Below are positions 26,954 through 42,854 of a DNA stretch of 64,000 nucleotides, piece by piece. The notes beneath the pieces were generated by a model. It did not search any database and was not told the origin of the DNA. It saw only the letters and a program-made list of their open reading frames with translations. The translations under genes were made by a program, and so were the position numbers. Positions within the stretch are counted from its first letter, which is position 1, and each line of letters begins with the position of its first letter. The DNA comes from Eubacteriales bacterium (lineage in GTDB: Bacteria > Bacillota > Clostridia > Oscillospirales > CAG-272). The stretch lies in NCBI GenBank assembly GCA_045588675.1, contig JAZNER010000016.1, positions 27,488 through 91,487 on the forward strand, written 5' to 3'.

Positions 26954-27010
26954 GCCAACAATTAAAGTTGTAATAAAAAATTGTATATATTTAAGAAAGG
27001 ATTTTTTAAA

Positions 27011-27832
27011 ATGGCACAATCACCTTTTGAAATCAAAAAAGAAATCTGCGACATTGGTAAAAGAATTTACGACCACGGATTCGTTGCAGCAAATGACGGA
27101 AACATTTCCGTAAAAGTAGGCCCTAACGAGTACTACTGCACACCTACAGGCGTATCAAAGGGATATATGACCCCTGATATGATCATCAAGGTTGACGCTA
27201 ACGGTAATAAGATCGAAGGTCGCCTTAATCCCTCATCTGAAATCAAGATGCACATGAGAGTTTATCAGGAGCGTCCCGACGTTAACGCTGTTGTTCACGC
27301 TCACCCCCCTGTTGCAACTGCTTTCACAGTAGCAGGAATTGAACTTGATCAGTACATTCTCCCCGAGGCTATTTTGACAATCGGTAATGTTCCTACCTGT
27401 GACTACGGTATGCCTTCCACAATGGAAATTCCCGATTCTCTTATGCCTTATATCCAGAAGCACGACGCTTTCCTTTTGAAGAACCACGGTGCGCTCACAG
27501 TTGGTAACACACTTATCCGCGCTTGCTTCACAATGGAAGAGGTTGAATTCAATGCAAAGATCAACCTTTACGCTCGTCAGATCGGCGTAGGCAAAAATGC
27601 TAATATTGAAGAGATTTCTTGCGTAGAGCTTGAAAGACTTATGGAGCTTCGTAAGAAGATGGGGCTTCCCGGTAAGCACCCCGGATGCAAAACTTGTCCT
27701 AACAACGGCACATCTAATTGCAAGTGCAAGACAGAAGGCGGCAGCTGCTCATGCGGCTCTCACTCTGCTCCCGCAGGTGACGACCTCGTATCTGACATTA
27801 CAAGAAAAGTTCTCGCCGCTCTCGGCAAGTAA
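27011..27832 (+). CDS. Class II aldolase (fuculose/rhamnulose-1-phosphate aldolase-like) with C-terminal encapsulation peptide
   Basis: DGNIS, TPTG, PSSEIKMH, VHAHPP and LKNHG Zn motifs; C-terminal amphipathic DDLVSDITRKVLAALGK. Confidence 0.9.
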   Translation: MAQSPFEIKKEICDIGKRIYDHGFVAANDGNISVKVGPNEYYCTPTGVSKGYMTPDMIIKVDANGNKIEGRLNPSSEIKMHMRVYQERPDVNAVVHAHPPVATAFTVAGIELDQYILPEAILTIGNVPTCDYGMPSTMEIPDSLMPYIQKHDAFLLKNHGALTVGNTLIRACFTMEEVEFNAKINLYARQIGVGKNANIEEISCVELERLMELRKKMGLPGKHPGCKTCPNNGTSNCKCKTEGGSCSCGSHSAPAGDDLVSDITRKVLAALGK

Positions 27833-27897
27833 TTTTTAAAAACAAAAAAGTATAATCTTTTGTTTCAGAAATTAATTGAAAAGGAGCGTCCATAAAA

Positions 27898-29358
27898 ATG
27901 GTAAATAACCTCACAGAGGCACAAATCAATGCGATAGTCGCAAAGGTCGTGTCCGAGATTAAATCCCCTGCCTCAGCACCTGTCAGTGCGAAGGCCTGGG
28001 ATGCCACACAATACCACGGACGCAAGCTTATCGGCATTTACGAAACAATGGAAGAAGCCATTGAGGTAGCAAATGCAGGATATAAGGCTGTCCGTTCAAT
28101 GTCTGTGGCAGACAGAGAAAAAATTATTACGGCAATCAGAAATCTCACCAGAGCTGAAGCTCAGAATATGGCGGAGATCGGTGTTGCTGAAACAAAAATG
28201 GGTCGTGTTGACCACAAGTATGCAAAGCATATGCTTGTTGCCGACAAAACACCCGGAACCGAGGATATAGTTGAAGAGGCAAGAACAGGCGATTATGGCC
28301 TTACTCTTACCGAAATGGCTCCCTTCGGGGTTGTAGGAGCGATCACTCCTTCAACAAACCCATCAGAAACTGTTATTTGTAACAGTATCGGTATGATTGC
28401 CGCAGGTAACGGCGTTGTATTCAACCCCCATCCCGGCGCAATCGCAACATCAAACTATGCAGTTGACCTTGTAAACCGCGCAGTTTACGCAGCGGGCGGT
28501 CCGAAGGTTTTGGTTGCGAGTGTTGTTAAGCCTACGCTTGATACCGCTAACGTTATGTATAAGCACCCATCAATCAAGCTTCTTGTTTGTACGGGTGGTC
28601 CCGGAGTTGTAAGAGCAGTTCTCTCCTCCGGCAAAAAGGCAATTGGCGCAGGTGCGGGCAACCCTCCTGTTATAGTTGACGACACCGCTGATATTCAAAA
28701 GGCGGCAAAGGACATTATTGACGGCTGTACCTTTGATAACAACCTTCCCTGCATTGCTGAAAAGGAAGTTTTCGTTTTCAACAATGTTGCGGACAGACTT
28801 ATTGCAGGTATGCTTAAAAACGGTTGTATCTTGCTTACCCGTGAGCAAGCAGATAAGCTTGCTAAGGTCGTTCTGGTTGAAAAAACCGACAAGAACGGCA
28901 AGGTAAAGAAGATCGTAAACCGTGATTGTGTCGGTCGCGACTGCTCTGTAATCCTTGAAAAGATCGGAATTAAGGTTGGACCTGAGATCCGTTGCGCTAT
29001 CGCAGAGGTTCCCTTTGAGCACGACTTTATTCAGGAAGAGCTTATGATGCCAATTCTCGGCATTGTGCGTGTAAAGGATATTGACGAGGCGATCACTCTG
29101 GCTGTCAAGGCCGAGCACGGAAACCGTCACACCGCGCACATGCACTCAAAGAACATTGACAACCTTACCGCCTTCGCGCGCGCAGTTGAAACAACGATCT
29201 TTGTAAAGAATGCTCCCTCTTACGCCGGTATCGGATTTGGGGGCGAGGGACACACAACATTTACGATTGCAGGTCCCACAGGAGAAGGAATTACCTCCGC
29301 CCGCAGCTTTACAAGACGCCGCCGTTGCGTAATGGTTGACAGCTTCAGAATTATTTGA
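27898..29358 (+). CDS. CoA-acylating (propion)aldehyde dehydrogenase, PduP/EutE family
   Basis: ITPSTNP, TGGPGVV, AGAGNPP, DNNLPCIAEKE and ELMMP; N-terminal encapsulation helix EAQINAIVAKVVSEI. Confidence 0.94.
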   Translation: MVNNLTEAQINAIVAKVVSEIKSPASAPVSAKAWDATQYHGRKLIGIYETMEEAIEVANAGYKAVRSMSVADREKIITAIRNLTRAEAQNMAEIGVAETKMGRVDHKYAKHMLVADKTPGTEDIVEEARTGDYGLTLTEMAPFGVVGAITPSTNPSETVICNSIGMIAAGNGVVFNPHPGAIATSNYAVDLVNRAVYAAGGPKVLVASVVKPTLDTANVMYKHPSIKLLVCTGGPGVVRAVLSSGKKAIGAGAGNPPVIVDDTADIQKAAKDIIDGCTFDNNLPCIAEKEVFVFNNVADRLIAGMLKNGCILLTREQADKLAKVVLVEKTDKNGKVKKIVNRDCVGRDCSVILEKIGIKVGPEIRCAIAEVPFEHDFIQEELMMPILGIVRVKDIDEAITLAVKAEHGNRHTAHMHSKNIDNLTAFARAVETTIFVKNAPSYAGIGFGGEGHTTFTIAGPTGEGITSARSFTRRRRCVMVDSFRII

Positions 29359-29387
29359 TAGCAATATTATGAAAGGAAAATAAACAA

Positions 29388-30608
29388 ATGGATATTTCTG
29401 CTTCTCAGATCGAAAGTATTGTAAGAAGTGTAATCAGTTCTATGGGCGCATCTGCCAATGTTTCAAGAGATGTTCCTAAGGTTGCACACGTTGCGATGCT
29501 TACCGGTCCAAAGAAAATTGAAGTTCAGGAGCTTCCTATCCCCGAGCTCGGCGATGATGATATCCTCGTTCGCGTTGAGGGTGCGGGTGTCTGCGGAACC
29601 GACGTGCACGAGTGGAAGATGGACCCATTCGGTCTTATTCCCGTAATCCTCGGTCACGAGGGCACAGGCGAGGTTGTGGCTCTTGGCAAAAACGTAAAGG
29701 TTGATACACAGGGTAAGCCCCTCAAGGTTGGTGACAAGATAGTTACATCTGTTACAAGCTGCGGTGAGTGCTACAACTGTCGTATGCATCCCGAAACATC
29801 TAACCTCTGCGACAATCAGGGCGTTTTTGGCCTTATCGGCGACAAGAGAGGTCAGGCTGAGGGCAACCGTGTAAACGGCTGGTTCGCTGACTATATGGTT
29901 ATTAAGGGTGGCTACGGAGTTACATATTTCCAGGTTAACGACCTTAACTTAAAGCAAAGAATGCTTCTTGAGCTTGCTTGCGTATGTGTTCACGCGCTTG
30001 AAAGAGCACAGTCAACAGGACTTCTTAACTTCGGCTCCAAGGTTCTTCTTCAGGGCTGCGGACCCGTTGGCCTTACGATGATCACAGTTCTTCGCGCAGC
30101 AGGTATCAATCACATTATCGCAGTTGACGGTAATGAGGATAGATTGAAGGTAGCCGAAAGAATGGGCGCTAAAACGACAATTTGCTTCCGCCGTCCCGAT
30201 GAGGACACTCTTGAAAAGAGAGTTAACAAGGTTAAGGCAGTATCAAACGGCGTTGGAGTTGATTTCGCGTTCCAATGCACAGGCGCACCTGTAGCAGCTG
30301 CTGATATTTACAGCTACATCCGCCGCGGTGGCGGTATGTGTGAAATGGGCTTCTTCGTAAACAACGGAGATTACCAGGTCAACCCACACATCGCTATGTG
30401 TAACAAGGAAATCAACATCGTTGGTTCTTGGGACTACTCGGCTCAGGATTACCCCAAGACAGTTGCATTCCTTCACCAGTGCGCAGAGATGAACATCCCG
30501 ATCGAGGAATTGATTACTCACTCCTTCCCCCTCGACAAAATGAACGAGGCTATGGAAACAAACGTAGCTCAAAAGGGTATCAAGATTTGTTATATCAATG
30601 ACAAATGA
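29388..30608 (+). CDS. Zn-dependent (MDR) alcohol dehydrogenase with N-terminal encapsulation peptide
   Basis: GVCGTD, GHE, structural Zn CGECYNC..C and GCGPVG; N-terminal ASQIESIVRSVISSM. Confidence 0.9.
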   Translation: MDISASQIESIVRSVISSMGASANVSRDVPKVAHVAMLTGPKKIEVQELPIPELGDDDILVRVEGAGVCGTDVHEWKMDPFGLIPVILGHEGTGEVVALGKNVKVDTQGKPLKVGDKIVTSVTSCGECYNCRMHPETSNLCDNQGVFGLIGDKRGQAEGNRVNGWFADYMVIKGGYGVTYFQVNDLNLKQRMLLELACVCVHALERAQSTGLLNFGSKVLLQGCGPVGLTMITVLRAAGINHIIAVDGNEDRLKVAERMGAKTTICFRRPDEDTLEKRVNKVKAVSNGVGVDFAFQCTGAPVAAADIYSYIRRGGGMCEMGFFVNNGDYQVNPHIAMCNKEINIVGSWDYSAQDYPKTVAFLHQCAEMNIPIEELITHSFPLDKMNEAMETNVAQKGIKICYINDK

Positions 30609-30623
30609 TGAGGAGTAGCAGTT

Positions 30624-30965
30624 ATGGCAGCACTCGGAATGATTGAGGTTTACGGCTACACTACCTCAATAGTAATCGCAGACTTGGTGGCTAAGGTCGC
30701 TGATGTCAAGGTTGTAGCAATTGACAAAAACAAACCTGCTAATGCAGAGCAATGTGCAGTGCCGCTTGTAATGGTTGTTAAATTCGAGGGCAATGCAGGC
30801 GCAGTTCAGTCGGCACTTGACGCGGGAGTTGAGGAAGCAAAGCGCAGAGGTCTTTATATTACCTCTAAGATGATTGCGGGACTTGACGACCAGGTTCAAT
30901 GGTTTGCAGACCTTTCTGCTACGGGCAAGGATAAGCTCAGAAATACAGACAAAAAGTCTAAATAA
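30624..30965 (+). CDS. BMC-H shell protein, divergent
   Basis: ALGMIEV..D..AK.ADV..V.FEG..GAV..A BMC pattern, with a loop insertion and basic tail. Confidence 0.85.
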   Translation: MAALGMIEVYGYTTSIVIADLVAKVADVKVVAIDKNKPANAEQCAVPLVMVVKFEGNAGAVQSALDAGVEEAKRRGLYITSKMIAGLDDQVQWFADLSATGKDKLRNTDKKSK

Positions 30966-31007
30966 TTAAGTTAAAAAAATTGTAATATAAAAAGGAGATT
31001 CAAGACA

Positions 31008-31283
31008 ATGAATGAAGCACTTGGAATGGTAGAAACAAGAGGACTCGTAGCTGCAATCGAGGCAGCAGATGCTATGGTTAAGGCTGCTAACGTACAGCTT
31101 ATCGGCTCTGAGAAGATCGGTAGCGGACTTGTAAGCGTTATGGTTCGCGGTGATGTTGGCGCGGTTAAGGCTGCTGTTGAGGCAGGCGGAGCTGCAGCTT
31201 CCCGTCTTGGCGAAGTTATCGCTACACACGTTATTCCCCGTCCTCACACCGACGTTAACAAGCTTCTCCCCACACTCGGTTAA
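31008..31283 (+). CDS. BMC-H major shell protein (PduA/EutM-like), copy 1
   Basis: [23 protein letters not shown] pore, [10 protein letters not shown] and HVIPRPH. Confidence 0.97.
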
Positions 31284-31420
31284 TTTAAAGCCGAACAAAT
31301 CAAAAGACTTTGGCAGGGTGGGAATTTCAGGCTCGGTTACATATAAAATCGAATTTCTCTCATATCAATTGATAGAAGCCATAATTCCCTCCGCCCGAGT
31401 ACCGAAATGGAGATCAAAAA

Positions 31421-31705
31421 ATGGAAAAAGCAATTGCACTGCTTGAAGTTCAAGCTATGGTAACAGCGATAGTCGGTCTTGACGCTATGGTGAAAGCCGC
31501 AAACGTAAAGCTGATTCACGTTGAAAAGCGCTTGGGCGGAAGACTTGTGACAGTTGTTGTTGAGGGTACTGTTTCGGCAGTTACCGCCGCTCTTGAAGCG
31601 GGAGTCGAAGCCGCACAGGCTGTCGGAAATGTTATGTGTCAAGAGGTTATTGCACGTCCACATCCCGACATAGTAAAATTTATTAAAACAGACGAGGGTG
31701 TTTAA
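31421..31705 (+). CDS. BMC-H shell protein
   Basis: [36 protein letters not shown]. Confidence 0.93.
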   Translation: MEKAIALLEVQAMVTAIVGLDAMVKAANVKLIHVEKRLGGRLVTVVVEGTVSAVTAALEAGVEAAQAVGNVMCQEVIARPHPDIVKFIKTDEGV

Positions 31706-31796
31706 TTCAAAGCTCCCCCGCTGAAATAAAAGTCTCCCAAGCTTAATTTGGGAAAAGAATAAGAAAAATTTTAAATCCAAAAAGGAGAAAATTATT

Positions 31797-32072
31797 ATGA
31801 ATGAAGCACTTGGAATGGTAGAAACAAGAGGTCTTGTAGCTGCAATCGAAGCAGCAGATGCTATGGTTAAGGCTGCTAACGTACAGCTTATCGGCTCTGA
31901 GAAGATCGGTAGCGGACTTGTAAGCGTTATGGTTCGCGGCGATGTTGGCGCAGTTAAGGCTGCTGTTGAAGCAGGCGGAGCTGCAGCTTCCAGCCTCGGC
32001 GAAGTTGTTGCTACACACGTTATCCCCAGACCCCACACAGACGTTAACAAGCTTCTCCCTTCTCTCAGCTAA
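31797..32072 (+). CDS. BMC-H major shell protein (PduA/EutM-like), copy 2
   Basis: Same motifs as copy 1; 87/91 aa identical to 31008..31283. Confidence 0.97.
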
Positions 32073-32118
32073 TCTGAAAATTAGCAGAGATAGCACGACA
32101 AGCTTAAAAATGTCAGCT

Positions 32119-32148
32119 GTGTCTTGCCCGATTTTTCGGGCAAGACAC
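32119..32148 (+). other. Perfect 13-bp intercistronic stem-loop after BMC-H copy 2, no U-tract
   Basis: GTGTCTTGCCCGA-TTTT-TCGGGCAAGACAC followed by CAACAAAAAG. Confidence 0.75.
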
Positions 32149-32247
32149 CAACAAAAAGAATTTTTATATTAAGGCATTCAAGATATATGTTTGAGTTTCT
32201 TAATATAAAAATTGTTATTTAAATTGAAAGGAGCTTAAAGCTTAAAT

Positions 32248-32907
32248 ATGAATATTTCAACAGCAGATATTGAAAGCATCGTAAAAAAGATAGTTTCAGA
32301 AATGACAACCGATGCTCCTAAAAGCAACTCCCTTGAAATTCCTGTTGGTATATCAAACAGACATATTCACTTAACGCGTGAGGATCTGGACACTCTTTTC
32401 GGCAAAGGATATGAGCTTACACATCTGAAGGATTTGTCACAGCCCGGTCAGTATGCTTGCAAGGAAACTCTCACAATATTAGGCCCTTCAATGCGCGCCA
32501 TTGAAGGTGTCAGAGTTCTCGGTCCTCTCCGTCGCGCAAGTCAGGTAGAAATTTCGGTGACAGATTCTTATGTATTGAAGGTTAAGCCCCCTGTTCGCGA
32601 ATCAGGCAGTCTTAGCGGCTCCGCACCGATCACTATTGTCGGTCCTCGCGGAGTAGTTACCTTGAAAGAAGGCTGTATTATAGCTAACCGCCACATTCAT
32701 ATGAGCCCTGATGACGCTGTTCGCTTCGGAGTGAAGGACGGCGACTACATAAATGTTGACGCTATGTCAGGTACAAAGAGAACAAGATGGTTTGACGTTC
32801 AAATCAGAGTTAACAAGGACTTCAGACTTGAAATGCACGTTGATACTGATGATGCCAATGCGGTAGGCTTCAAAAATGGCAGCACAGTTACTGTTGCAAA
32901 AGACTAA
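32248..32907 (+). CDS. pduL: Phosphate propanoyltransferase (PTAC) with N-terminal encapsulation peptide
   Basis: ISNRHIHL, LSQPGQY, VRVLGP, RHIHM and MHVDTDDANA; N-terminal TADIESIVKKIVSEM. Confidence 0.95.
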   Translation: MNISTADIESIVKKIVSEMTTDAPKSNSLEIPVGISNRHIHLTREDLDTLFGKGYELTHLKDLSQPGQYACKETLTILGPSMRAIEGVRVLGPLRRASQVEISVTDSYVLKVKPPVRESGSLSGSAPITIVGPRGVVTLKEGCIIANRHIHMSPDDAVRFGVKDGDYINVDAMSGTKRTRWFDVQIRVNKDFRLEMHVDTDDANAVGFKNGSTVTVAKD

Positions 32908-32936
32908 TATTAGATTAAAATAAGAGGTACATTTTT

Positions 32937-33200
32937 ATGTTAAAGGGTAAAGTTGTAGGAACAATAGTATCAACAAACAAGCTTGAGAAGCTTGTAGGCT
33001 ATAAGTTCCTTGAAATTCAAATCATTGAAAACCGCGAGCTTACCGATAAATATATCGTAGCGGTTGACCGCACCGTGAGCGCAGGTATCGGAGAAGAGGT
33101 ACTTGTAACAACAGGAAGCGGTGCAAGAGTTGCAGTCGGCGACCAGAATTCTCCGATTGATGCAGTAGTAGTAGGAATTGTAGATAAAAAAGTTAACTGA
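32937..33200 (+). CDS. BMC-P vertex protein (EutN/CcmL/PduN family)
   Basis: GKVVGTIVSTNK, VAVD..AGIGEEVL..GSGAR and PIDAVVVGIVD. Confidence 0.95.
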   Translation: MLKGKVVGTIVSTNKLEKLVGYKFLEIQIIENRELTDKYIVAVDRTVSAGIGEEVLVTTGSGARVAVGDQNSPIDAVVVGIVDKKVN

Positions 33201-33278
33201 TTTGTTTAGTTAAAATTATCACTCTACATAAATATTTTTATCCCCACAGAAAGGAAGCACTTTTGTGCGAATAGAGCA

Positions 33279-34604
33279 ATGCCACAGATAGACTTAAAAT
33301 CAATTATGCAAAACAACGGTATTGTCGGCGCGGGCGGTGCAGGATTTCCCTCTTACGGAAAGCTTGCCGACGGAGCTGACTTGCTTGTAATAAACTGTGC
33401 CGAATGTGAGCCGCTTATGTACACTGACTATATGCTTATGCGTGAGGAAATGTCCAAAATCGTTGAAGGCTGTCAGATAATAATGGCCCAAACAGGAATT
33501 AAGCACTCGTACATATCGATCAAAGAGCACAGAGCTCATATGCTCGGTTACACCGAAGGCCAGATCCTTGGCGAGAATGTAAGCGTTAAGCTGCTCCCCA
33601 ATGTTTACCCTATGGGTGACGAGATCAACTTGATTTACGAAACCACGGGACGCGTTGTAAAGCCGGGTAATCTTCCTATTACCGCAGGTGTTATAGTTTA
33701 CAACGGCGAAACTGTTTATAATATTCGCGCAGCTGTCAAGGAAGGCAAGCCTGTTGTGGAAAAGTGGGTAACGATTGGCGGTGATCTGCCCGAAAGATAT
33801 ATGGTTAAAGCTCCTATTGGAATGCGTGTATCTGAAATTTTCGATATGCTTGGAGTAAAGGTACGACCTGACCAAGCTATGATAGACGGCGGTCCTGCTA
33901 TGGGTAAAATCAAAGATCCCGAAACCGCTACTATTACCAAAACAACAAAATCACTTCTTATAATTCCCAAAACCGCTCGTTGTATTCAGAACAAGCAGGT
34001 GGCTATGGACGATATGATGCGCCGAGCGGCTTCCGCTTGCTGCGGTTGTATCAGATGTACTGAAATGTGTCCGAGAAACCTTCTGGGTTATCCGCTTGAG
34101 CCTCACAAAATGATAAGAGCTGCTCTCAACAATGCTGTCGTTGATTATCCTGAGCTTATCAAAACCGCTTCGCTTTGCTGTTCCTGCGGTGTTTGCGCTG
34201 AGGTTTGCTGTCAGGAAATCTCGCCTAAGGATGTAATTCTGAACCTCAAAGGAATTCTTGCTAAAAACAAGCTCAGATTTGCTGCGGGAAACGAGGATTA
34301 CAGCGTAAACTCTGACCGCCAGTATAGAATGATTCAATCAACCAAATGGGAAGAAATACTTGGTGTGCGCAAATATGATGTTGTGCCTAAATACATTCAG
34401 AACAGTCTTAAAGCTACGAGAGTTGAAATCGCTATGTCATCTCACATAGGCGCGCCTTCACTTCCCACCGTTAAAGTCGGTGATATTGTAACCGAAGGAC
34501 AAATGATTGCAGAATGCGGCGCAGGTCTTTCTGTTCCTCAGTTCGCTTCAATCGGCGGCAAAGTCGTATCGGTTGACCCATCAAAGATTGTTATAGAAGC
34601 ATAA
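33279..34604 (+). CDS. pduS: PduS-like Fe-S flavoprotein (RnfC-related)
   Basis: GIVGAGGAGFP, NCAECEP, YPMGDE, GGPAMG, CCGCIRCTEMCP, CCSCGVC and HIGAP. Confidence 0.88.
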   Translation: MPQIDLKSIMQNNGIVGAGGAGFPSYGKLADGADLLVINCAECEPLMYTDYMLMREEMSKIVEGCQIIMAQTGIKHSYISIKEHRAHMLGYTEGQILGENVSVKLLPNVYPMGDEINLIYETTGRVVKPGNLPITAGVIVYNGETVYNIRAAVKEGKPVVEKWVTIGGDLPERYMVKAPIGMRVSEIFDMLGVKVRPDQAMIDGGPAMGKIKDPETATITKTTKSLLIIPKTARCIQNKQVAMDDMMRRAASACCGCIRCTEMCPRNLLGYPLEPHKMIRAALNNAVVDYPELIKTASLCCSCGVCAEVCCQEISPKDVILNLKGILAKNKLRFAAGNEDYSVNSDRQYRMIQSTKWEEILGVRKYDVVPKYIQNSLKATRVEIAMSSHIGAPSLPTVKVGDIVTEGQMIAECGAGLSVPQFASIGGKVVSVDPSKIVIEA

Positions 34605-34640
34605 CAGTCAATCAGTTAAGAAAGGTATTGGATTTACATA

Positions 34641-35186
34641 ATGTATCAAGCAATTGGTGTAATTGAACTTAAAAGCATAGCAAAGGGTATTGAAGCAACA
34701 GATGCGGCTCTCAAAAGCGCAGGAATCAGCTTGATTTCGGCTCGTCCCGCCTGTCCCGGTAAGTTTGAAATGATTATCACAGGTACTATTTCAAATGTTA
34801 CAAGCGCGGTTGAACACGTTAAGAGCCGTTTTGAAGACAAGCTTGTTGACGTTTCTATTATGGGACGCATTGACCCTCAAGTTATCACCTCTCTCTTTGG
34901 CACTCAGCCCGCCGAGAAAAAGGGCAGCCTTGGAATTATCGAAACATATTCTGCGGCAAGTATTATTAAAGCGGCTGATATAGCTGTTAAAACTGCTAAA
35001 GTATCAATTTTTGAGCTTCGCACCTCTCGCGGTATGGGCGGTAAGGGTATCGCTCTCGTTACAGGTGATGTCGGTGATGTTACCGCGGCTGTTGAAGCAG
35101 GCGCAGCTCACGCTAAGGATGCAGGCGTATTCTACAATTCGTCTGTAATTCCTGCTCCTCACTCTCTTCTCTGGGAGCAAATCTGA
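34641..35186 (+). CDS. pduT: BMC-T tandem shell protein, PduT-like
   Basis: Two BMC domains, CPGK pore cysteine motif, GMGGKG; follows pduS. Confidence 0.9.
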   Translation: MYQAIGVIELKSIAKGIEATDAALKSAGISLISARPACPGKFEMIITGTISNVTSAVEHVKSRFEDKLVDVSIMGRIDPQVITSLFGTQPAEKKGSLGIIETYSAASIIKAADIAVKTAKVSIFELRTSRGMGGKGIALVTGDVGDVTAAVEAGAAHAKDAGVFYNSSVIPAPHSLLWEQI

Positions 35187-35229
35187 TTTGAGATGATTTT
35201 GAGATAATTAATTATTTGGAGATAATAAA

Positions 35230-37761
35230 ATGGGCAATATTAAATTTGTAATAAATAAAAGTCCAAGAATTTCAAGGCTTATTGACCATCTCTATGCCAA
35301 TACGCCCGAAATTGAGGCTGACAGAGCCGAGCTTATAACCGAAAGTTACAAGCATACAGAGCATCTGCCGACTATTAAAAGACGCTCTGCCGCATTCCGT
35401 CACATTCTTGAAAATATCCCGATAGTTATTCGTCCTGAAGAGCTTATTGTTGGTAGTAACTCTATCAAGCCTCGCAGTTGCCAGATCTTCCCCGAGTATT
35501 CTTACGAATGGCTTGAGCTTGAATATGACACTCTCGCAACCCGTGAGGCTGACCCCTTCTATATCTCTCCCTCGACTGTTGACAGACTTAAGAAGGCAAC
35601 TCCTTACTGGAAGGGCAAGACCGTTAGTGATTTGGCTGCCCAAAGCATGGACAAGAAGGTTCTTGATGTTTTCATGAACCACGGTATGTTTACCGTTGGA
35701 AACTATTTTTATAACGGAATAGGCCACATAAATGTTGATTATGCAAAGGTTATAAATAAAGGTCTTGAAGGTATAATCGAAGAAGCAAAATCCGCTCTTT
35801 CAAAGCTTTATATCGGAAATGGCGATTACTTGCGCCGCAAGCATTTTCTTGAGGCAGTAATTGAAAGCTGTGAGGGCGTTATCACATATGCAAAGCGTTA
35901 TTCCGCGCTTGCACTCAAGGAAGCGGGAGAATGTACAGACAGTGTTCGCCGCGCAGAGCTTTTGAAAATTTCAGAGATCTGCGACAGAGTTCCCGCAAAG
36001 CCTGCAAGAAGCTTCTATGAGGCTTGCCAGAGCTTCTGGTTCGTTCAACAGCTTATTCAGTGCGAGTCAAACGGTCACTCGATTTCTCCCGGACGCTTTG
36101 ACCAATATATGTATCCCCTTTTCAAGAAAGACCTTGACAACGGTACAATAACTCACGAGCTTGCACAGGAATATATCGACTGTATCTGGGTTAAGCTCAA
36201 CGACCTCACTAAAGTAAGAGATTTAGCTTCCGCAGAAGGCTTTGCAGGCTACGGCTTGTTCCAGAACCTTATCGTAGGCGGTCAGAACGAGGAAGGAATT
36301 GATGTTACAAACGACCTTTCCTATATGTGTCTTGAGGCTACAATGCATGTTCGCCTTCCCCAGCCCTCTCTTTCAATCCGCGTATGGAACGGTTCGCCTC
36401 ACGATTTGCTTATTAAGGCAGCGGCTCTTACACGCGAAGGCTTTGGAGTTCCCGCTTACTATAACGACGAGGTTATTATTCCCTCAATTATGGCACGCGG
36501 CCTTACACTTGAAGACGCGCGCGATTACTGCATTATCGGTTGCGTAGAGCCTCAAAAGGGCGGCAAAACAGACGGTTGGCACGACGCGGCATTCTTCAAT
36601 ATGTGCCGTCCGCTCGAGCTTGTATTCTCAAACGGATATGATAAGGGCAAGCTTATCGGTCTTCAGACAGGCGATGTCGAGAAAATGACAAGCTTTGAAG
36701 AATTCTATGATGCTTACAAGCGTCAGCAATTTAACATGATAGAAATGATGGTTAACGCCGACAACGCCGTTGACTATGCACACTCGGTACGCGCTCCTCT
36801 CCCCTTTGAGTCTTGCCTCTGTGATGACTGTATTTCAAAGGGCAAGAGTCTTCAGGAAGGCGGTGCACATTATAATTTCACAGGTCCGCAGGGATTTGGA
36901 ATTGCTAATATGACCGATGCACTGTTAGCTGTTAAAACTCTTGTATTTGAAACAAAGCAAGTTACAATGAAGGAGATGAAGGAAGCTGTTGCTAACAACT
37001 TCGGCAAGGGTATTATGCCCAAAAAGGCAATTGAGCTTACTGCAGAGGTAGCTCGCCAGCTTGACAAGAACGGTGTTGATGTAAACGAGGCTATTATAAA
37101 AAGCATTTATGAGAATATAACAAATGCAGAAAGTATTCCTGCTGACAAAAAGGCAAGATATGGCGAGATACTCGATTTGATCAACGCTCTTCCCAAGTAC
37201 GGCAACGATATCCCTGAGGTTGATGCCTTTGCACGTGAGGTTGGAAACACATATACAAAGTCATTTGACAAATTCACTAACCCTCGCGGCGGTATATATC
37301 AGGCAGGACTTTATCCCGTATCTGCAAACGTTCCGCTCGGTTACCAGACAGGAGCTACTCCCGACGGCAGACTTGCTTACACACCTATTGCAGACGGCGT
37401 AGGCCCTGCATCGGGACGAGATGTAAAGGGTCCGACAGCAACCGCTAACTCTGTTGCCCGTCTTGACCACGGAATTGCATCAAACGGAACACTCTTTAAT
37501 CAGAAGTTCCACCCGTCAGCTCTTGCAGGTATGGCAAGCCTTGAAAAATTCGTGGCTTACCTTCGCGGATATTTTGACCAGAAGGGTATGCACGTTCAGT
37601 ACAATGTAGTTTCAAAGGAAACCTTGCTTGACGCCCAAAAGAACCCCGAAAAATACAAAACTCTTGTGGTAAGAGTTGCAGGATACAGCGCACTCTTTAC
37701 AACACTTTCCCGCTCACTCCAGGACGATATTATCAATCGTACCGAGCAGTCGGGGCTTTAA
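35230..37761 (+). CDS. Glycyl radical enzyme, most likely B12-independent 1,2-propanediol dehydratase
   Basis: ESNGHSISPGRFDQY, Cys loop IIGCVEP and glycyl loop RVAGYS; located in a BMC locus with aldolase, PduP and PduL. Confidence 0.87.
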   Translation: MGNIKFVINKSPRISRLIDHLYANTPEIEADRAELITESYKHTEHLPTIKRRSAAFRHILENIPIVIRPEELIVGSNSIKPRSCQIFPEYSYEWLELEYDTLATREADPFYISPSTVDRLKKATPYWKGKTVSDLAAQSMDKKVLDVFMNHGMFTVGNYFYNGIGHINVDYAKVINKGLEGIIEEAKSALSKLYIGNGDYLRRKHFLEAVIESCEGVITYAKRYSALALKEAGECTDSVRRAELLKISEICDRVPAKPARSFYEACQSFWFVQQLIQCESNGHSISPGRFDQYMYPLFKKDLDNGTITHELAQEYIDCIWVKLNDLTKVRDLASAEGFAGYGLFQNLIVGGQNEEGIDVTNDLSYMCLEATMHVRLPQPSLSIRVWNGSPHDLLIKAAALTREGFGVPAYYNDEVIIPSIMARGLTLEDARDYCIIGCVEPQKGGKTDGWHDAAFFNMCRPLELVFSNGYDKGKLIGLQTGDVEKMTSFEEFYDAYKRQQFNMIEMMVNADNAVDYAHSVRAPLPFESCLCDDCISKGKSLQEGGAHYNFTGPQGFGIANMTDALLAVKTLVFETKQVTMKEMKEAVANNFGKGIMPKKAIELTAEVARQLDKNGVDVNEAIIKSIYENITNAESIPADKKARYGEILDLINALPKYGNDIPEVDAFAREVGNTYTKSFDKFTNPRGGIYQAGLYPVSANVPLGYQTGATPDGRLAYTPIADGVGPASGRDVKGPTATANSVARLDHGIASNGTLFNQKFHPSALAGMASLEKFVAYLRGYFDQKGMHVQYNVVSKETLLDAQKNPEKYKTLVVRVAGYSALFTTLSRSLQDDIINRTEQSGL

Positions 37762-37774
37762 GGTAAAAATGGCT

Positions 37775-37806
37775 TGTCAGGGAGCTTTTAAATAAGTTCC
37801 CTGACA
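37775..37806 (+). other. Stem-loop between the GRE and activase genes, no U-tract
   Basis: TGTCAGGGAGCTT-TTAAAT-AAGTTCCCTGACA (one G-U pair), followed by GCCCTCAAAAG. Confidence 0.7.
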
Positions 37807-37920
37807 GCCCTCAAAAGCTTTGAAAATTATTTCACCCATTTTATATGCTTAAATTGACTTAATTTAATCGTATAAAATTGGTGAACAGGTAAAAATCGTT
37901 ACGAAATCAGGAGTAATAAA

Positions 37921-38718
37921 GTGAATTCAAATATATACGAGCAAACAGGTCGAATTTTCGACATACAAAGATATTCTATACATGACGGACCTGGAATAAG
38001 GACTATCGTGTTCCTTAAAGGATGCCTGCTCCGTTGCAAATGGTGCTGTAACCCCGAATCGCAGGAATACAAAATACAGGATATGACTCTTGCGGGCAAA
38101 ACCAAAATTGTCGGCAGAGATGTTACTGTCGGCGAGGTTATAGACGAGATCATGGCAGACAGAATTTACTATAGGAGAAGCGGTGGGGGCATCACACTGT
38201 CGGGCGGCGAATGTATGACACAGCCCGATTTTGCCGAAGCGCTTTTGAGAGCGGTACACGAGCACGGCTTTAACACCGCAATTGAAACAACCGCTTGCGC
38301 AAGCCGTGAAGTTGTAGATCGACTTCTTCCCCACGTTGACCACTTCCTTATGGACATAAAGCATATGAATTCAGCAAAGCACCAACAGTTCACGACTCAA
38401 CCGAATGAATTGATATTGGAAAACGCTAAATACATAGCTGAGAACGCAAATCATCTGATTATCAGAGTTCCCGTAGTGCCAACCTTTAATGACACTCCCG
38501 AGGAAATCTCGGCAATTGCTCGCTTTGCAGACGCGCTCCCCAATGTGCGAGAGCTTCACCTGCTTCCCTACCACCGTTTAGGTCAGGACAAGTATGCGGG
38601 AATAGGCAGACGCTATGAGCTTGACGGCATAACGCCCCCTACAACCGAGCATATGCAAGAGCTTTTGCGTGTGGCGGAAAGTGTATCAACAAAGCTGTCA
38701 GTTCAAATCGGCGGTTAA
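37921..38718 (+). CDS. Glycyl-radical enzyme activating enzyme (radical SAM, no ferredoxin insert)
   Basis: HDGPGIRT.VFLKGC, CLLRCKWC, SGGE and LLPYH; GTG start with AGGAG RBS. Confidence 0.95.
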   Translation: MNSNIYEQTGRIFDIQRYSIHDGPGIRTIVFLKGCLLRCKWCCNPESQEYKIQDMTLAGKTKIVGRDVTVGEVIDEIMADRIYYRRSGGGITLSGGECMTQPDFAEALLRAVHEHGFNTAIETTACASREVVDRLLPHVDHFLMDIKHMNSAKHQQFTTQPNELILENAKYIAENANHLIIRVPVVPTFNDTPEEISAIARFADALPNVRELHLLPYHRLGQDKYAGIGRRYELDGITPPTTEHMQELLRVAESVSTKLSVQIGG

Positions 38719-38802
38719 TCTAACAATTTAGAATTTTTAATTTTCTTTAAATAACACTCAACTCAAACATTTTTTTAGCGCTTTGGCGCACGGAGAATTA
38801 TT

Positions 38803-39174
38803 ATGGCAAACAAATTAGATATGCAAGATAAAATGCGAATTGTGCAAGAGTTGGTCCCGGGACGGCAAATCACTCTTGCTCACATAATCGCCAACCCCGA
38901 CCCCATACTTTATCAGAAACTCGGTCTTGACCCTCGCCTTGACTATGAAAAGGCGGCTATCGGCGTGCTTACCGTAAGCCCCGCCGAAACAGCGGTTATT
39001 ACAGCCGATATTGCTCTCAAATCCTCAGGCGCTGACCTTGGATTTGTAGATAGATTTTCAGGCACGCTTATAATTACAGGCAAGGTTGCAGAGGTTGAGG
39101 CTTCATTTACCGCTATCACCGAGTATTTTGGCAAAACTCTCAATTTCTCGGTTTGTGAAATGACAAGAACCTAA
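38803..39174 (+). CDS. Circularly permuted BMC-H shell protein, EutS/PduU family
   Basis: RIVQELVPGRQITLAHIIANP, AIGVLTVSPAETA, GFVDRFSG and C-terminal TRT. Confidence 0.93.
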   Translation: MANKLDMQDKMRIVQELVPGRQITLAHIIANPDPILYQKLGLDPRLDYEKAAIGVLTVSPAETAVITADIALKSSGADLGFVDRFSGTLIITGKVAEVEASFTAITEYFGKTLNFSVCEMTRT

Positions 39175-39176
39175 AA

Positions 39177-39605
39177 ATGAAAAAGCTGATCTTAATGGGG
39201 CGTGTTGCGGCGGGTAAGACCACGCTGACACAAGCTTTAAAGGGTGAGCAGATTCATTACTGCAAAACCCAATATATAAACTATACAGACACGATTATCG
39301 ATACACCCGGTGAGTACACTGAGGTTCACACCTTGGCAGCCGCTTTGGCAGTTTATTCTTACGAGGCTGATGTTATCGGACTTGTGGTAAGCTCGAATGA
39401 GCCATTTTGCGTATTCCCGCCAAACTGCACTCACCACGTCAACCGAGATGTAATAGGTATTATTACAGGTATCGACAAGCCTGACGGTAATGTCCAAAAG
39501 GCTGAGCGTTGGCTGCGCAACTGCGGCTGCAAAAGGTTATTTTATGTAAGCTCCTATACAAGAGAGGGACTTGATAAAATAATTGACTATTTAAATCAGG
39601 AATAA
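39177..39605 (+). CDS. EutP/PduV family small P-loop protein
   Basis: GRVAAGKTTL, KTQ, IDTPGEY and VIGIITGID; follows EutS/PduU. Confidence 0.93.
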   Translation: MKKLILMGRVAAGKTTLTQALKGEQIHYCKTQYINYTDTIIDTPGEYTEVHTLAAALAVYSYEADVIGLVVSSNEPFCVFPPNCTHHVNRDVIGIITGIDKPDGNVQKAERWLRNCGCKRLFYVSSYTREGLDKIIDYLNQE

Positions 39606-39621
39606 AAGGAGATACAAGGAT

Positions 39622-40413
39622 ATGTCCTCGACAAAAATTATTTGCTTTGCCAATAACAAGGGCGGCAGTGGAAAATCTACTACCTGCGCAAATATTGGCT
39701 ATGCTATGAGCACACTCGGCAAAAAAGTTCTTCTTATCGACTCCGATATGCAGATGAACCTGACTCTCTCGTATTTTGACGACGAGCAGTCGCTTGAAAT
39801 GGCAAAGAGCGGTAAAAATCTCTATACAGGTATTATTGAGCAGAAGGATCTTAGCGAGTACATAGTTCCCACAGCATATGAAAACCTTGATTTAATTCCT
39901 TCCTCAACTCTTATGAGCGGAATTGAATTTCAGCTTTTCTCAAAATGGCAGAGAGAGTTTATTCTCCGTCAGGGGCTCAAGAATATCAAGGAATCGGGCA
40001 AATATGATTTTATCCTGATCGACTCTCCCCCGACACTCGGCTGCTGGGTAATGAATATTATGTGTGCGGCTGATTATTTAATAATTCCCGTTGAGGCGTC
40101 GCCCTGGGGACTTTTCGGACTTGCGAATATGTTTGAATTCTACGAGCAGGTTAAGCTCATTTCTCCTACGATTGAGCTTCTCGGTATTGCCGTTACAAAG
40201 GCAAGCGAGCGCAAAAATTATTTTAAGCAGACAATCGAAACCTTGTCAAGCCTTGATAATGTAAGGCTGTTTAATACAATAATCAGAATTGACAGCACGG
40301 TTGAATGGTCGCAGGACAACAGTAAGCCTGTTATGGCTTACAAGCGAACCAGCCGCGCGGCTCAGGAATATATGGAAATGGCACAGGAGGTTATGAATTA
40401 TGCCGATAGGTAA
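39622..40413 (+). CDS. ParA/MinD-family ATPase (orphan, BMC-operon-encoded)
   Basis: Deviant Walker A KGGSGKST, Walker A' LLIDSDMQMN, Walker B DFILIDSPP; no N-terminal HTH. Confidence 0.92.
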   Translation: MSSTKIICFANNKGGSGKSTTCANIGYAMSTLGKKVLLIDSDMQMNLTLSYFDDEQSLEMAKSGKNLYTGIIEQKDLSEYIVPTAYENLDLIPSSTLMSGIEFQLFSKWQREFILRQGLKNIKESGKYDFILIDSPPTLGCWVMNIMCAADYLIIPVEASPWGLFGLANMFEFYEQVKLISPTIELLGIAVTKASERKNYFKQTIETLSSLDNVRLFNTIIRIDSTVEWSQDNSKPVMAYKRTSRAAQEYMEMAQEVMNYADR

Positions 40414-40780
40414 GGACAGTATCCAAAAAAGAGTAGCAAAAACAGTTGAAGTAAAGGAAAACATTGCACCGGAGCTTGTTGCAACTACTGCTGCGGCGCC
40501 TGCACCTAAAAAGCCCGCGCCAAAGAAAACAGCAGCAAAGTCAACAGCACAGACAAAGTCAACGAAGGCAACTGCAACAAAGAAATCACCCGCCAGCACA
40601 AAAGAAGCGCCTAAAGCTACTAAAAAGGCTGTGGAAAAGCCCGCTGAGGCTAAGCGTGTCGAAACAACAGTTCTTGCAAATGTTGCTCCCGAAACAGTTG
40701 CCGCAGTAATCGGCCACAAGGAAGGCGAAAAGCAGGACAAGGTCAGCATTGGCGGAAAGCTTCCCGTTCACTTGCTTTAA
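40400..40780 (+). CDS. Small Lys/Ala/Thr/Pro-rich disordered protein, candidate ParA partner
   Basis: Strong AGGAGG RBS inside parA, 14-nt overlap; basic N-terminus, low-complexity middle, C-terminal IGGKLPVHLL; followed by a terminator. Confidence 0.75.
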   Translation: MPIGKDSIQKRVAKTVEVKENIAPELVATTAAAPAPKKPAPKKTAAKSTAQTKSTKATATKKSPASTKEAPKATKKAVEKPAEAKRVETTVLANVAPETVAAVIGHKEGEKQDKVSIGGKLPVHLL

Positions 40781-40806: not shown

Positions 40807-40846
40807 AAAAATCAACCGAGGCCTAAACAAGCTTCGGTTGATTTTT
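40807..40846. terminator. Bidirectional terminator ending the BMC operon
   Basis: AAAAATCAACCGAGGC-CTAAACAA-GCTTCGGTTGATTTTT. Confidence 0.88.
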
Positions 40847-40906: not shown

Positions 40907-42346
40907 TCAATTTTTCTCTGCGGTGTCGCTCCCACTTAAAAACAAGGCGTCATTTCCTTCTTCTATTTCGGAAATTTTGCCGGTATCGGGCGGTATTAAG
41001 GAATTGCATTTGCCAAATGCATCCTTCCCTATTTTCGTCACTCCGCCAAGCGAAACTCTTTCAAGCGCAGAGCAACCGTAAAAGACAGAAGCCTTGATTT
41101 CACTTACCTTTTGAGGTATATCAATTTCCTTAAGCGATGAGCAGAGGTAAAATGCTTGCATACCTATGCTTTCCAGATGCTCTCCCAAAACAACCTTCTC
41201 TAAGCTGTCACAGCCGAAGAACGCGTCGTCGCCGAGTTCTTTTATCTCGCATAGCAAATCAATCTCTTTAAGTGAGCGACAAGAATAAAAGGCTCTTCTT
41301 CCAATAGACTTGACCGTTTCGGGCAAGTTGATCTCGGTGATATATTTACAGGATGAAAATGCTCTGTCCGCAATACTCTCACAGCCGTCTGTAATATTGA
41401 TTTGCCTTAGAGAGCTTGGCACAAACTCGTCATTGTAATCAGGGCTTTGCGCACCGAAAATATATCCCAAATATTGATTTTGCTCAGTGCCACCGCCGAC
41501 AAAAGACAAGGTAATATTGTTCAGCGACGAGCAATTCAAGAGCGCTCCGTTGGCGATTTCCTTTGCCCCGTCAAGCTTTACAGAGTAAAGCGAGGAGCAA
41601 TACGCGAAGGCGTAATCAAGAATTTTTCCGCCAAGCCCACCAAAGCTTACACAAACCAAATCAAAGCACTCGAAAAACGCAAACTGACCGATTTTGTCTA
41701 TATTTCCTTCAAAGCAGATTGCCGAAAGCATCTTACAGCCTGAGAAGGCGTTGTCTGCGATTTCACGGCAGTCTTGACCGATTATGACCATATCAAGACT
41801 TGACGGAATGTGAACGGCGTTCTCGTCATACCTCTGGGCGCCAAATATATAGCCAAATCCGTGCTCACCCTCGCCGTCACCGACAAAGGGCAGGCGCAGA
41901 GTAGCCAATCCGTCACTGTCTTCAAATGCCGATTTTTCGATTTTTTCTATGCCGTCAGGGATACTGACTGCTCTAATGTTCTTATTTGAAAAGGTATTTG
42001 TGCCGATTATCGCAACTTTTCTGCCGTCAATCTCGCTCGGCACAACGACAATTGTTTCGTTGCCTGTAAAATCAGTTATTCTGACCTTGCCGTCAATAAT
42101 TTCGTACTCAAAGCTTGACGCCTGTGTGACCTCACTCTCTAAAAAGGCAAGCGACATATTTTCAAAATATTCATTATATCTGTCGGCAAGCAGACTTCCC
42201 TCTCCCAAATCCTCAGCAGGAGTAAAGCTGTCAAGCTCTTCTTCTTTTTCGCTCTGCACTGTGTTGTCCTGTGGCTTTGCAATACAAGCCGACAATAATA
42301 TCATCAACACTGCCAGAAATCCTGATAAAATTATTTTAAGCCTCAT
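40907..42346 (-). CDS. BspA-type leucine-rich-repeat lipoprotein
   Basis: Start MRLKIILS (ATG 42346, GAAGGA RBS), lipobox LSAC; repeated IG..AF.GC.SL..I.L units; two LPFVG..GYIFGA insert modules. Confidence 0.85.
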   Translation of the reverse strand: MRLKIILSGFLAVLMILLSACIAKPQDNTVQSEKEEELDSFTPAEDLGEGSLLADRYNEYFENMSLAFLESEVTQASSFEYEIIDGKVRITDFTGNETIVVVPSEIDGRKVAIIGTNTFSNKNIRAVSIPDGIEKIEKSAFEDSDGLATLRLPFVGDGEGEHGFGYIFGAQRYDENAVHIPSSLDMVIIGQDCREIADNAFSGCKMLSAICFEGNIDKIGQFAFFECFDLVCVSFGGLGGKILDYAFAYCSSLYSVKLDGAKEIANGALLNCSSLNNITLSFVGGGTEQNQYLGYIFGAQSPDYNDEFVPSSLRQINITDGCESIADRAFSSCKYITEINLPETVKSIGRRAFYSCRSLKEIDLLCEIKELGDDAFFGCDSLEKVVLGEHLESIGMQAFYLCSSLKEIDIPQKVSEIKASVFYGCSALERVSLGGVTKIGKDAFGKCNSLIPPDTGKISEIEEGNDALFLSGSDTAEKN

Positions 42347-42854
42347 TTGTTTTTCCTTCATTTGTTGTTTCTTGGTTTTTCGTTTGCTCATTAAGTGCCT
42401 CAGCTCTAGCGCCGTGATAAGCTATCATAATAAGCATAGGTATCGCTTGTACAACAAGCCACACTGCTACAACATCAAACAGTGTCTTAATCTCCTCGCC
42501 CTCTTCCTCTAAATCAATCAGCGTCTTATTCATAGCATAGGGCATAAGACAGATATATGTGAACACAGCTAATACGATCAAAGCAATTACTTGCTCTTTA
42601 TGGAAAATGCCCGAGCTTTGCTTTTCAGCGTAAATGCAAGACAGAGCAATAGCAAGTACGATTGCGGGAACGAGCGCAGAGCCGTATCTCAAAACCCATT
42701 TAAGATTTTCCATACTGCCAAGCTCATCAAGCTTCAGAAAGAGCTCTTCAACAAAAAAGCCTCTCAGATAAAGCATAAAGCTCATTATAGCGCACAAAAG
42801 CGCCGATACGGCAATTAACCGCCAGAAGTTAAATGTTTCTTTTTTATGCATCAT
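42336..42854 (-). CDS. Hypothetical membrane protein (about 4 TM)
   Basis: Four hydrophobic segments; overlaps the LRR gene start. Confidence 0.65.
   Translation of the reverse strand: MMHKKETFNFWRLIAVSALLCAIMSFMLYLRGFFVEELFLKLDELGSMENLKWVLRYGSALVPAIVLAIALSCIYAEKQSSGIFHKEQVIALIVLAVFTYICLMPYAMNKTLIDLEEEGEEIKTLFDVVAVWLVVQAIPMLIMIAYHGARAEALNEQTKNQETTNEGKTNEA

Follow-up and report, generated by a model that had tools for sequence, protein, structure and literature searches.

A ParA-family ATPase and a small basic partner protein at the end of a glycyl-radical microcompartment operon in Clostridia: a candidate McdAB-like positioning pair

Background

How catabolic bacterial microcompartments (BMCs) are spaced in the cell and inherited by its daughters is an open question, and it is raised in a compact form by a locus in a stretch of 64,000 nucleotides (nt) of Eubacteriales bacterium (Bacillota, Clostridia, Oscillospirales, CAG-272; assembly GCA_045588675.1, contig JAZNER010000016.1, positions 27,488 to 91,487), whose genome is 1.9 Mb in size and 97% complete. 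We call this whole stretch the window and give positions within it, position 1 being its first letter. In the window, an operon for a glycyl-radical microcompartment (GRM) ends with a gene for a ParA/MinD-family ATPase, below ParA, and a gene for a protein of 126 amino acids (aa), below the partner. The original prediction, drawn from the nucleotide letters alone, took the two for a candidate positioning system of the McdAB kind known from carboxysomes. Here we ask whether this reading stands against the sequence families, genomes and literature that bear on it.

The general idea of McdAB-like pairs at GRM loci is already in print, so far only as a prediction. In the searchable text of the papers cited here, McdA/McdB-like sequences are reported within or beside four non-carboxysome BMC types, with a Tyr in the last four residues of the McdB-like proteins (MacCready 2021, PMC8359340); the propanediol-utilisation (PDU) and GRM types are named, and the McdB-like proteins are described with a Tyr or Phe in the last five residues, and it is shown that the carboxysomal Trp can in part be replaced by Tyr or Phe (Basalla 2024, PMC11321042). 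ParA was already listed among the ancillary families of BMC loci (Axen 2014, PMC4207490). McdB is encoded downstream of mcdA and binds McdA by a basic N-terminus (PMC12139897). Salmonella Pdu organelles were moved neither by carboxysomal McdAB nor by the ParA or MinD of the host (2026, PMC12866334), and PduV was proposed in 2010 to affect the positioning of PDU microcompartments (cited in PMC8262871). A literature search combining McdB, ParB and 'glycyl radical' returned only three works, each of them one of these McdAB papers' group.

Results and discussion

The pair and its proposed role

Overall, the analysis leads us, with middling confidence, to read ParA and the partner as an McdAB-like two-protein positioning system dedicated to the glycyl-radical microcompartment. 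The support comes from the membership of both genes in the operon, from co-occurrence with BMC genes in samples not seeded by the pair, from a distinct ParA clade with invariant catalytic residues, and from a small partner family under selection, which has an McdB-like architecture and whose end motifs recur beside orthologous ParAs. ATP-bound ParA dimers would sit on a surface, most likely the nucleoid, while the partner would be held on the outer side of the microcompartment via its C-terminal [LM]-P-x-[Y/F/H]-L-[LM] and would span to ParA by its long basic linker. The N-terminal peptide M-P-I-G-K-D-S-I-x-K-R, which is like the activating peptide of ParB, would then stimulate the ParA ATPase, and the local depletion of ParA would keep the organelles apart and divide them between the daughter cells. 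We infer every binding step here, as well as the matrix that is used and the effect on organelle distribution.

The operon covers positions 25640-40780, all on one strand (ORF calls, i.e. of open reading frames, Pfam and NCBIfam), and the pair forms its last two genes, as the original prediction stated. The ParA gene (39622-40413, plus strand) encodes a protein of 263 aa that starts MSSTKIICFANNKGGSGKST and carries the deviant Walker A motif KGGSGKST with the signature Lys13; its ATG is preceded by AAGGAG. ParA has no helix-turn-helix (HTH) domain, since AAA_31 (E 1.6e-53) and CbiA (1.4e-17) are its sole Pfam matches. The partner gene (40400-40780, plus strand) overlaps it by 14 nt (40400-40413), and the ribosome-binding site AGGAGG of the partner (40385-40390, plus strand) lies inside the ParA coding sequence, with a 9-nt spacer to the ATG at 40400. 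The ORFs, Pfam and the sequence itself bear out this description, which had been given beforehand for the Walker motif, the missing HTH, the overlap and the AGGAGG.

The partner family

The partner, with a predicted isoelectric point of 10.0, runs MPIGKDSIQKRVAK...GGKLPVHLL and is rich in Lys (23 residues), Ala (23), Thr (14) and Pro (11) among its 126 residues, a composition that would suit a low-complexity, intrinsically disordered protein such as McdB. An alignment of 25 members, A1, divides it into four parts: the N-terminus MPIGKDSIxKRVAK, another short stretch that is conserved, IAPELVATTAAAP, a variable linker, and some 40 C-terminal residues that align without gaps and end in [LM]-P-x-[Y/F/H]-L-[LM]. 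In the window, the nearly invariant N-terminal peptide MPIGKDSIQKRVAK (residues 1-14, net charge +3; 40400-40441) is the presumed ParA-activating arm; the linker (residues 37-84, K/A/T/P-rich, net +11; 40508-40651) varies in length and sequence in A1; and the conserved last 42 residues (40652-40777) close with LPVHLL at 40760-40777, all on the plus strand. Alignment, composition and codon data agree with the basic N-terminal peptide, long linker and C-terminal tag that had been read off the single sequence, the linker being of low complexity. Inside the protein there is also a near-repeat, NIAPELVAT (residues 21-29) and NVAPETVAA (residues 94-102), at 40463-40501 and 40670-40708.

From public genomes, 62 partner orthologues were recovered. 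The Pro at position -5 and the Leu at -2 from the end are invariant in 62 of 62, each through four to five codons (five for the Leu), and Arg11 is invariant, yet written with four different codons. At position -3 there is a Tyr in 32 of the orthologues, a Phe in 17 and a His in 13. Codons 6-14 have a dN/dS ratio of 0.10 and the last 40 codons one of 0.19, taken from 1047 and 1178 of 1953 pairs with usable dS, respectively. The partner is a real gene family under purifying selection with conserved end motifs. It is also a small one: its relatives at E<=0.01 number 477 and are all alike in length, and among 1.84 billion cluster representatives a profile search finds only 82 clusters of the family, 75 of which end in [LMIV]Px[FYHW]L[LMI]. 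No Pfam (above cut-off), NCBIfam, PHROG or PDB sequence family corresponds to the partner, and no McdB model is among its matches in Pfam, NCBIfam and the PDB sequence search; a PDB profile search with the family reaches a best E of 0.27, and the ESM Atlas gives unnamed Bacillota clusters only.

The ParA clade

In the clade of the operon ParA, K13 and K18 of KGGSGKST are invariant in 29 of 29 sequences, as are the catalytic residues K13, K18, D40, D42, N46 and D134 throughout the clade. R197 is invariant too, and MAFFT pairs it with an Arg that is invariant in 26 of 26 Soj sequences. The acidic C-terminus reads ...AAQEYMEMAQEVMNYADR. The clade is sharply bounded, with an internal identity of 53-100% and next best matches of at most 38%. 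In a sample of the class (399 scored genomes), four genomes besides the own genome carry an orthologue at 59-67% identity, all other matches being at most 38%, and in a phylum sample of 401 genomes the own genome alone matches ParA at E<=1e-60. When 29 clade members and 26 Soj-like proteins are placed in one tree, the two groups part with support of 100/99 on a very long branch, and the operon ParA is 32% identical to the Soj of its own genome. The best plasmid and phage matches are 39.6% and 34.5% identical, and neither set of records contains a ParA above 40% identity. Nesting within chromosomal Soj or plasmid ParA had been named beforehand as a finding that would speak against a dedicated system; by the tree and these identities the clade is separate from both. 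Similarity to MinD is weak (archaeal MinD in PDB at 9.4e-14; the MinD model TIGR01968 covers residues 5-45 only), and PADLOC gives weak P-loop matches only. Searching the own genome with ParA yields just three ParA-like matches, with no MinD-like gene among them.

Two further results on ParA can be set aside. A 357-aa ParA entry, P0132, contains an internal duplication of about 95 residues; it was rejected as a ParA fusion, the duplication being probably an assembly artefact. A complex prediction (two ParA, two ATP, two Mg and partner residues 1-45), run without controls, gave a score of 0.00 and a mark of 0.32, and is evidence neither way.

Co-occurrence with microcompartments

A search seeded with the partner gives 65 loci, all from uncultured Clostridia in animal gut assemblies. 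ParA lies immediately upstream of the partner in 63 of them, the remaining two being cut 7 and 134 nt before the partner. A PduV gene adjoins ParA in 60 of the 65 loci, 58 have BMC genes and 57 have a glycyl radical enzyme (GRE) or its activase, where the shortfalls are due to short upstream flanks at those loci. The very design of this search favours such an association, and genome samples that had not been chosen by means of the pair were therefore used as well. Among 121 genomes of the own family, 15 (10 of 97 genera) carry the ParA clade and 24 a BMC domain; all 15 are BMC-positive, and none of the 97 BMC-negative genomes carries the clade. The class sample has the clade in five genomes and a BMC domain in 138, and again all five are BMC-positive; these five are all among the 86 of 400 genomes that have a close GRE orthologue. 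The original prediction would have lost its ground if such pairs occurred mostly in genomes without BMC loci; in both samples the ParA clade is confined to BMC-bearing genomes (15/15 and 5/5). The counts express an association and not a probability, because related genomes are not independent.

Relatives in other families

Relatives of the pair in three other families show which parts of the partner are held constant: both end motifs follow orthologous ParAs there, while the middle of the protein is unrelated. In the first of these genomes, G395, the synteny is unchanged, and the partner has only 87 aa (MPIGKNAIKRV...GGEMPYYLL); this shorter form has one similar copy of the near-repeat, ahead of a Lys-rich stretch. 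The PduV/EutP protein next to ParA in G395 bears a Lys-rich tail of about 30 residues ending in KLDAWLL, which resembles the C-terminal motif of the partner (L071:965-1483; L101:7006-7524); a search for further PduV proteins with a Lys-rich ...DAWLL tail returned the query itself and one weak match. In the second, G233, the gene after ParA encodes a protein of 103 aa (MAVGKASLKR...KELPVYLL), and next on the same strand comes an Fe-alcohol dehydrogenase (L099:8292-9509), whose scores for lactaldehyde reductase and EutG stay under the cut-offs; sugar ABC transporter-like ORFs lie beyond it. In the third family, f70, ParA is present in 12 of 12 genomes, and in 10 of them it has downstream of it a partner that begins with MSIGKSSI[NS]RA and closes with [LM]-P-x-[Y/F]-L-L. 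One f70 partner, of G795 (L112:1923-3404), is much longer: it starts MSIGKSSISRAGK, continues with A/K/P/D-rich repeats (ADVPA..KKAD, KAAAPVKKAPPA) and, after a ParB_N-like stretch, ends in EELPTFLL.

The versions of the N-terminal peptide that follow ParA orthologues elsewhere are MAVGKASLKR, MSIGKSSINR and MPIGKNAIKR. When the window and f70 partner families are compared by hhalign, the first 10 residues alone align (E 0.0013, probability 18%), and because the profile alignment is limited to these, it is two short end motifs and not a domain that travel with the ParA clade. The same alignment does not support a homology of the C-terminal block of the window partner to the ParB N-domain found in f70 partners (see below). 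A pattern search with the N-terminal peptide in five genomes found the window gene only, and as it missed known positives it is uninformative on G199, a further genome with this type of GRM. In a Soj-rooted tree, forms of the pair away from BMC loci (off-locus) are nested among the in-operon ones; the root lies on a very long branch, and keeping the in-operon forms together costs merely 1.67 units of log-likelihood (approximately unbiased test, p-AU 0.0485), for a group that was named after the tree had been seen. With this long root branch and small cost, the tree does not settle which arrangement is ancestral.

Weighing the positioning reading

Several observations weigh against a positioning role, and three other explanations of the pair are considered with them. 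Concerning the two proteins themselves, the closest solved structures to ParA are of ParA/Soj type (8RAY at 3.3e-32, HpSoj at 1.5e-25), and the solved cyanobacterial McdA-like protein reaches only 6e-15. As had been noted before, the window partner has no tryptophan, and none is found in any of the 62 orthologues (0/62); at position -3 the window partner itself has the minority state, His. In addition, the DNA-binding patch of HpSoj takes two of its four lysines from the Soj motif I-P-R-N-V-R/K-L (PMC6393308); the ParA clade has I-R-I-D-S-T-V-E-W in place of this motif, so that nucleoid binding by ParA is not assured. The clade has basic residues of its own (K193, K198, K202, R222, K241 and K242), which could rebuild the patch, and DNA binding in such a remodelled form is plausible.

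The altered patch is one reason to consider a BMC-linked role other than nucleoid-based positioning, which we regard as rather unlikely and still the most credible of the three. Here the partner would be a scaffold, an anti-aggregation or condensate factor, or a tether acting with PduV, and ParA would regulate assembly or use another surface. The PduV gene directly upstream of ParA would fit such a role, as would the KLDAWLL ending of the Lys-rich PduV tail in G395; so would the linker, whose net charge of +11 goes with a histone-H1-like composition, one relative having a precomputed PF07382 match and another being named HU-beta in its source. The ParA ATPase is intact, however, and is accompanied by an invariant partner peptide of the activating type, a combination that is the hallmark of ParA/MinD positioning; the six basic residues just listed may restore the DNA patch, and no evidence of encapsulation or scaffolding was obtained.

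Concerning the distribution, 9 of the 24 BMC-positive genomes of the own family are without the pair, which is dispensable for the organelle there, and so are 81 of the 86 GRE-positive genomes of the class. The pair is accessory, because most genomes with such an organelle lack it. Outside the own family of the window, it mostly lies away from the BMC locus: in G233, and likewise in the f70 genomes G330 and G798, some 10 kb around the pair are free of BMC genes, which are found on other contigs. The BMC regions of G199, G233, G330 and G798 are of the same GRM type, with a different gene order and on contigs other than that of the pair. BMC genes are present in 10 of the 12 f70 genomes; the other two, 76% and 62% complete, have the pair, and no BMC domain gene was found in them. 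In two f70 genomes ParA stands alone beside rimP, with no partner found.

It may also be asked whether the pair positions some other protein cargo, such as division, motility or secretion machinery, the BMC link reflecting only the shared ancestry of a few gut lineages. The patchy spread (15 of 121 family genomes) and the unlinked pairs in f70 and G233 would agree with this, and the C-terminal motif of the partner is loosely like the FtsZ C-terminal peptide. That peptide is usually of the P-x-F-L type. The FtsZ of the genome (L113:403-1434, contig 50) ends ...KSDWLDNLGYGNVKKR without any P-x-F-L type peptide to mimic, and the idea that the LPxYLL end imitates FtsZ was dropped. As the in-operon position is kept across at least 10 genera of the own family, and co-occurrence with BMC genes is seen in four separate families, we consider another cargo to be the least probable of the explanations, and a very improbable one.

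The third explanation is raised by the middle of the f70 partners, which, where tested, is a ParB N-terminal domain: PF02195 matches the G330 partner at E 1.7e-11, and a profile of nine f70 partners finds Noc (7NFU) at 1.4e-10. This domain points to a DNA-partition ancestry. In the f70 proteins (L072:2277-2789, L104-L111) GHKRFYAA stands in place of the GxxRxxA box, and the domain has no HTH after it and is flanked by both end motifs. The pair might accordingly be a module for DNA partition of the ParA/ParB type, or one otherwise related to the nucleoid, which in this family only happens to be carried at the end of the BMC operon; its cargo would be DNA, such as a chromosomal region or a mobile element. 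The ParB N-domain, which has the CTPase fold, would be natural in such a module, and so would the [IL]-G-[KR]-D that the N-terminal peptide of the partner has in common with the N-terminus of the genome's own Spo0J, the pairs outside BMC loci in other lineages, and the match of ParA to the PHROG family 'ParA-like partition protein' at 1e-59. No domain to bind the DNA is found, though: Pfam and PDB profile searches show no HTH or ribbon-helix-helix (RHH) domain in any partner, and the f70 forms hold the ParB_N part alone. The surroundings are those of a chromosome as well, with housekeeping genes flanking the operon (methionyl-tRNA synthetase, an extracytoplasmic-function sigma factor, cytidine deaminase, citrate synthase and a P-type ATPase) and a canonical rsmG-soj-spo0J set elsewhere in the genome. 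No ParB is near the pair, the ParB_N matches of the genome being on contigs 7, 44 and 6 and not on contig 16 of the window, in accordance with the original prediction, which had seen neither ParB nor a phage or plasmid context. Together with the lack of close plasmid or phage ParAs and the absence of the clade from BMC-negative genomes of the family and class samples, this leaves DNA as the cargo improbable.

As the partner shares [IL]-G-[KR]-D with Spo0J and the N-terminal Lys/Arg of ParB are needed for stimulation of the ParA ATPase (PMC11229316), the sequences suggest an adaptor of ParB ancestry. In a more specific and clearly more tentative form of the positioning reading, the partner would be a ParB-derived metabolosome adaptor, which combines a ParB-like N-terminal peptide with a C-terminal [LM]-P-x-aromatic-L-[LM] shell tag and leaves the middle free to vary, from a ParB N-domain in f70 through a histone-H1-like basic linker in the window to almost nothing in the forms of 87-103 aa.

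Comparison with known systems

Among characterised systems, the alpha-type McdAB of Halothiobacillus neapolitanus provides the nearest parallel in the searchable text of its papers (PMC8359340, PMC12139897, PMC11321042). It too has a ParA-family ATPase with the signature lysine encoded within a BMC operon, and immediately downstream a small partner with a basic N-terminus, largely low-complexity and without evident fold, which closes with a short motif that has an aromatic residue close to the C-terminus. The cargo differs, being here a catabolic glycyl-radical metabolosome of Clostridia. Unlike carboxysomal McdB with its invariant C-terminal Trp, the window partner family has no Trp and places Tyr, Phe or His at -3 in a fixed [LM]-P-x-aromatic-L-[LM]. 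Like McdA, the window ParA is encoded within its cognate BMC operon, in the window and in the loci of its own family, though not in G233 and f70; it differs from McdA in its structural matches, which are much stronger to ParA/Soj types than to the solved McdA-like protein.

The closest likeness is to the published McdB-like proteins of non-carboxysome loci, which have Tyr or Phe near the end, as most orthologues of the window partner do at -3. The putative McdA/McdB-like genes at GRM and PDU loci share with the window the GRM locus, the logic of the gene pair and a Tyr or Phe among the last 4-5 residues, and the window pair very probably belongs to this published group, to which it is likened by description and not by sequence. 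The original prediction fares unevenly in this light. Its central proposal holds in so far as an orphan ParA and a conserved partner are genetically tied to the GRM, while its suggestion that the missing tryptophan may set the partner apart as a distinct adaptor family is not supported, since Tyr (32), Phe (17) or His (13) occupies -3 and published McdB-like proteins have Tyr or Phe. The novelty, which it placed mainly in the partner, is weaker than was held, because McdA/McdB-like GRM and PDU genes with a C-terminal Tyr or Phe are already in print (PMC8359340, PMC11321042). The end motifs, the limits of the ParA clade, the ParB_N relatives and the off-locus arrangement are not described in the searchable text on the published GRM/PDU cases; as far as such texts go, these features seem to be new, and so does the accessory distribution. 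Three points had no place in the original prediction: PduV upstream, ParB_N in relatives of the partner, and the pair outside BMC loci elsewhere.

Chromosomal ParABS (Soj/Spo0J) resembles the pair in the ParA fold, the catalytic residues and the Arg at R197, in the activating peptide of ParB, to which the [IL]-G-[KR]-D of the partner is similar, and in the ParB N-domain that f70 partners keep. It differs in that neither ParB_N nor an HTH or dimerisation domain is found in the window partner, that the f70 relatives have ParB_N only, and that the DNA-patch motif of ParA is altered; nor was a parS seen, although no search aimed at one was made. Type Ib plasmid systems (ParF/ParG, delta/omega) likewise combine a small ParA without HTH and a small partner whose flexible basic N-tail activates the ATPase (PMC11229316), whereas the window partner has no RHH or other DNA-binding domain and is encoded in a chromosomal operon. 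The PduV/EutP GTPase, finally, is encoded next door and has a proposed positioning role, and belongs to a different NTPase family.

Operon context and neighbouring genes

The part of the operon upstream of PduV (25640-39174, plus strand; Pfam and NCBIfam) is that of a GRM of the glycyl-radical, aldolase type, and represents the presumed cargo of the pair. Its genes, in order, are for acetate kinase, class II aldolase, aldehyde dehydrogenase, zinc-dependent alcohol dehydrogenase, four BMC-H proteins, a PduL-type phosphotransacylase, BMC-P, a PduS-like flavoprotein, BMC-T, the glycyl radical enzyme, its activase and an EutS/PduU-like BMC protein, after which come PduV/EutP, ParA and the partner. 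The glycyl radical enzyme passes the TIGR01774 subfamily model only (NCBIfam). Several cargo enzymes (25640-32907) start well ahead of their Pfam domains, the match beginning at residue 42 in acetate kinase, 49 in aldehyde dehydrogenase, 55 in the zinc-dependent alcohol dehydrogenase, 32 in the phosphotransacylase and 21 in the aldolase; these N-terminal extensions could be encapsulation peptides. The PduV/EutP-family small GTPase (39177-39605, plus strand), directly upstream of ParA, matches PF10662 at E 9e-50 and TIGR02528 with 141.6 bits (cut-off 138.35).

Behind the partner, an intrinsic terminator hairpin (40807-40846, plus strand) closes the operon where the original prediction had placed its end. 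It has a 16-bp stem and a folding energy of -22.5 kcal/mol (z -7.58); a consensus scan missed it, and it was found by folding against 200 shuffles, none of which is as stable. Facing the terminator is a convergent gene for a BspA-type leucine-rich-repeat lipoprotein-like protein (40907-42391, minus strand; Pfam), and several related loci, e.g. L001, L002, L003, L006 and L011, have leucine-rich-repeat homologues at a distance of a few kb downstream.

Conclusions

The spacing and inheritance of catabolic microcompartments thus find, in this locus, a subject that will not surprise a specialist and is nevertheless an unusually clean handle on the question. Non-carboxysome McdAB-like systems are called unstudied in reviews of 2021, 2024 and 2025 (PMC8262871, PMC11407121, PMC13052382) and in a 2025 preprint (PMC12139897), the last three of which place such genes near some non-carboxysome BMC operons. 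The locus offers them a compact test case, with one ParA clade and one small partner, whose two sharply conserved end motifs lend themselves to mutation or transplantation; natural variants of the adaptor middle add to these. A short portable shell-docking tag with a matching ParA would help to disperse engineered microcompartments in heterologous hosts. If the ParB-derived adaptor were borne out, the pair would provide the first case of a ParA system that is specific to a metabolosome and has a defined cargo tag, and would mark an evolutionary path from the ParB of DNA partition to organelle adaptors of the McdB type.

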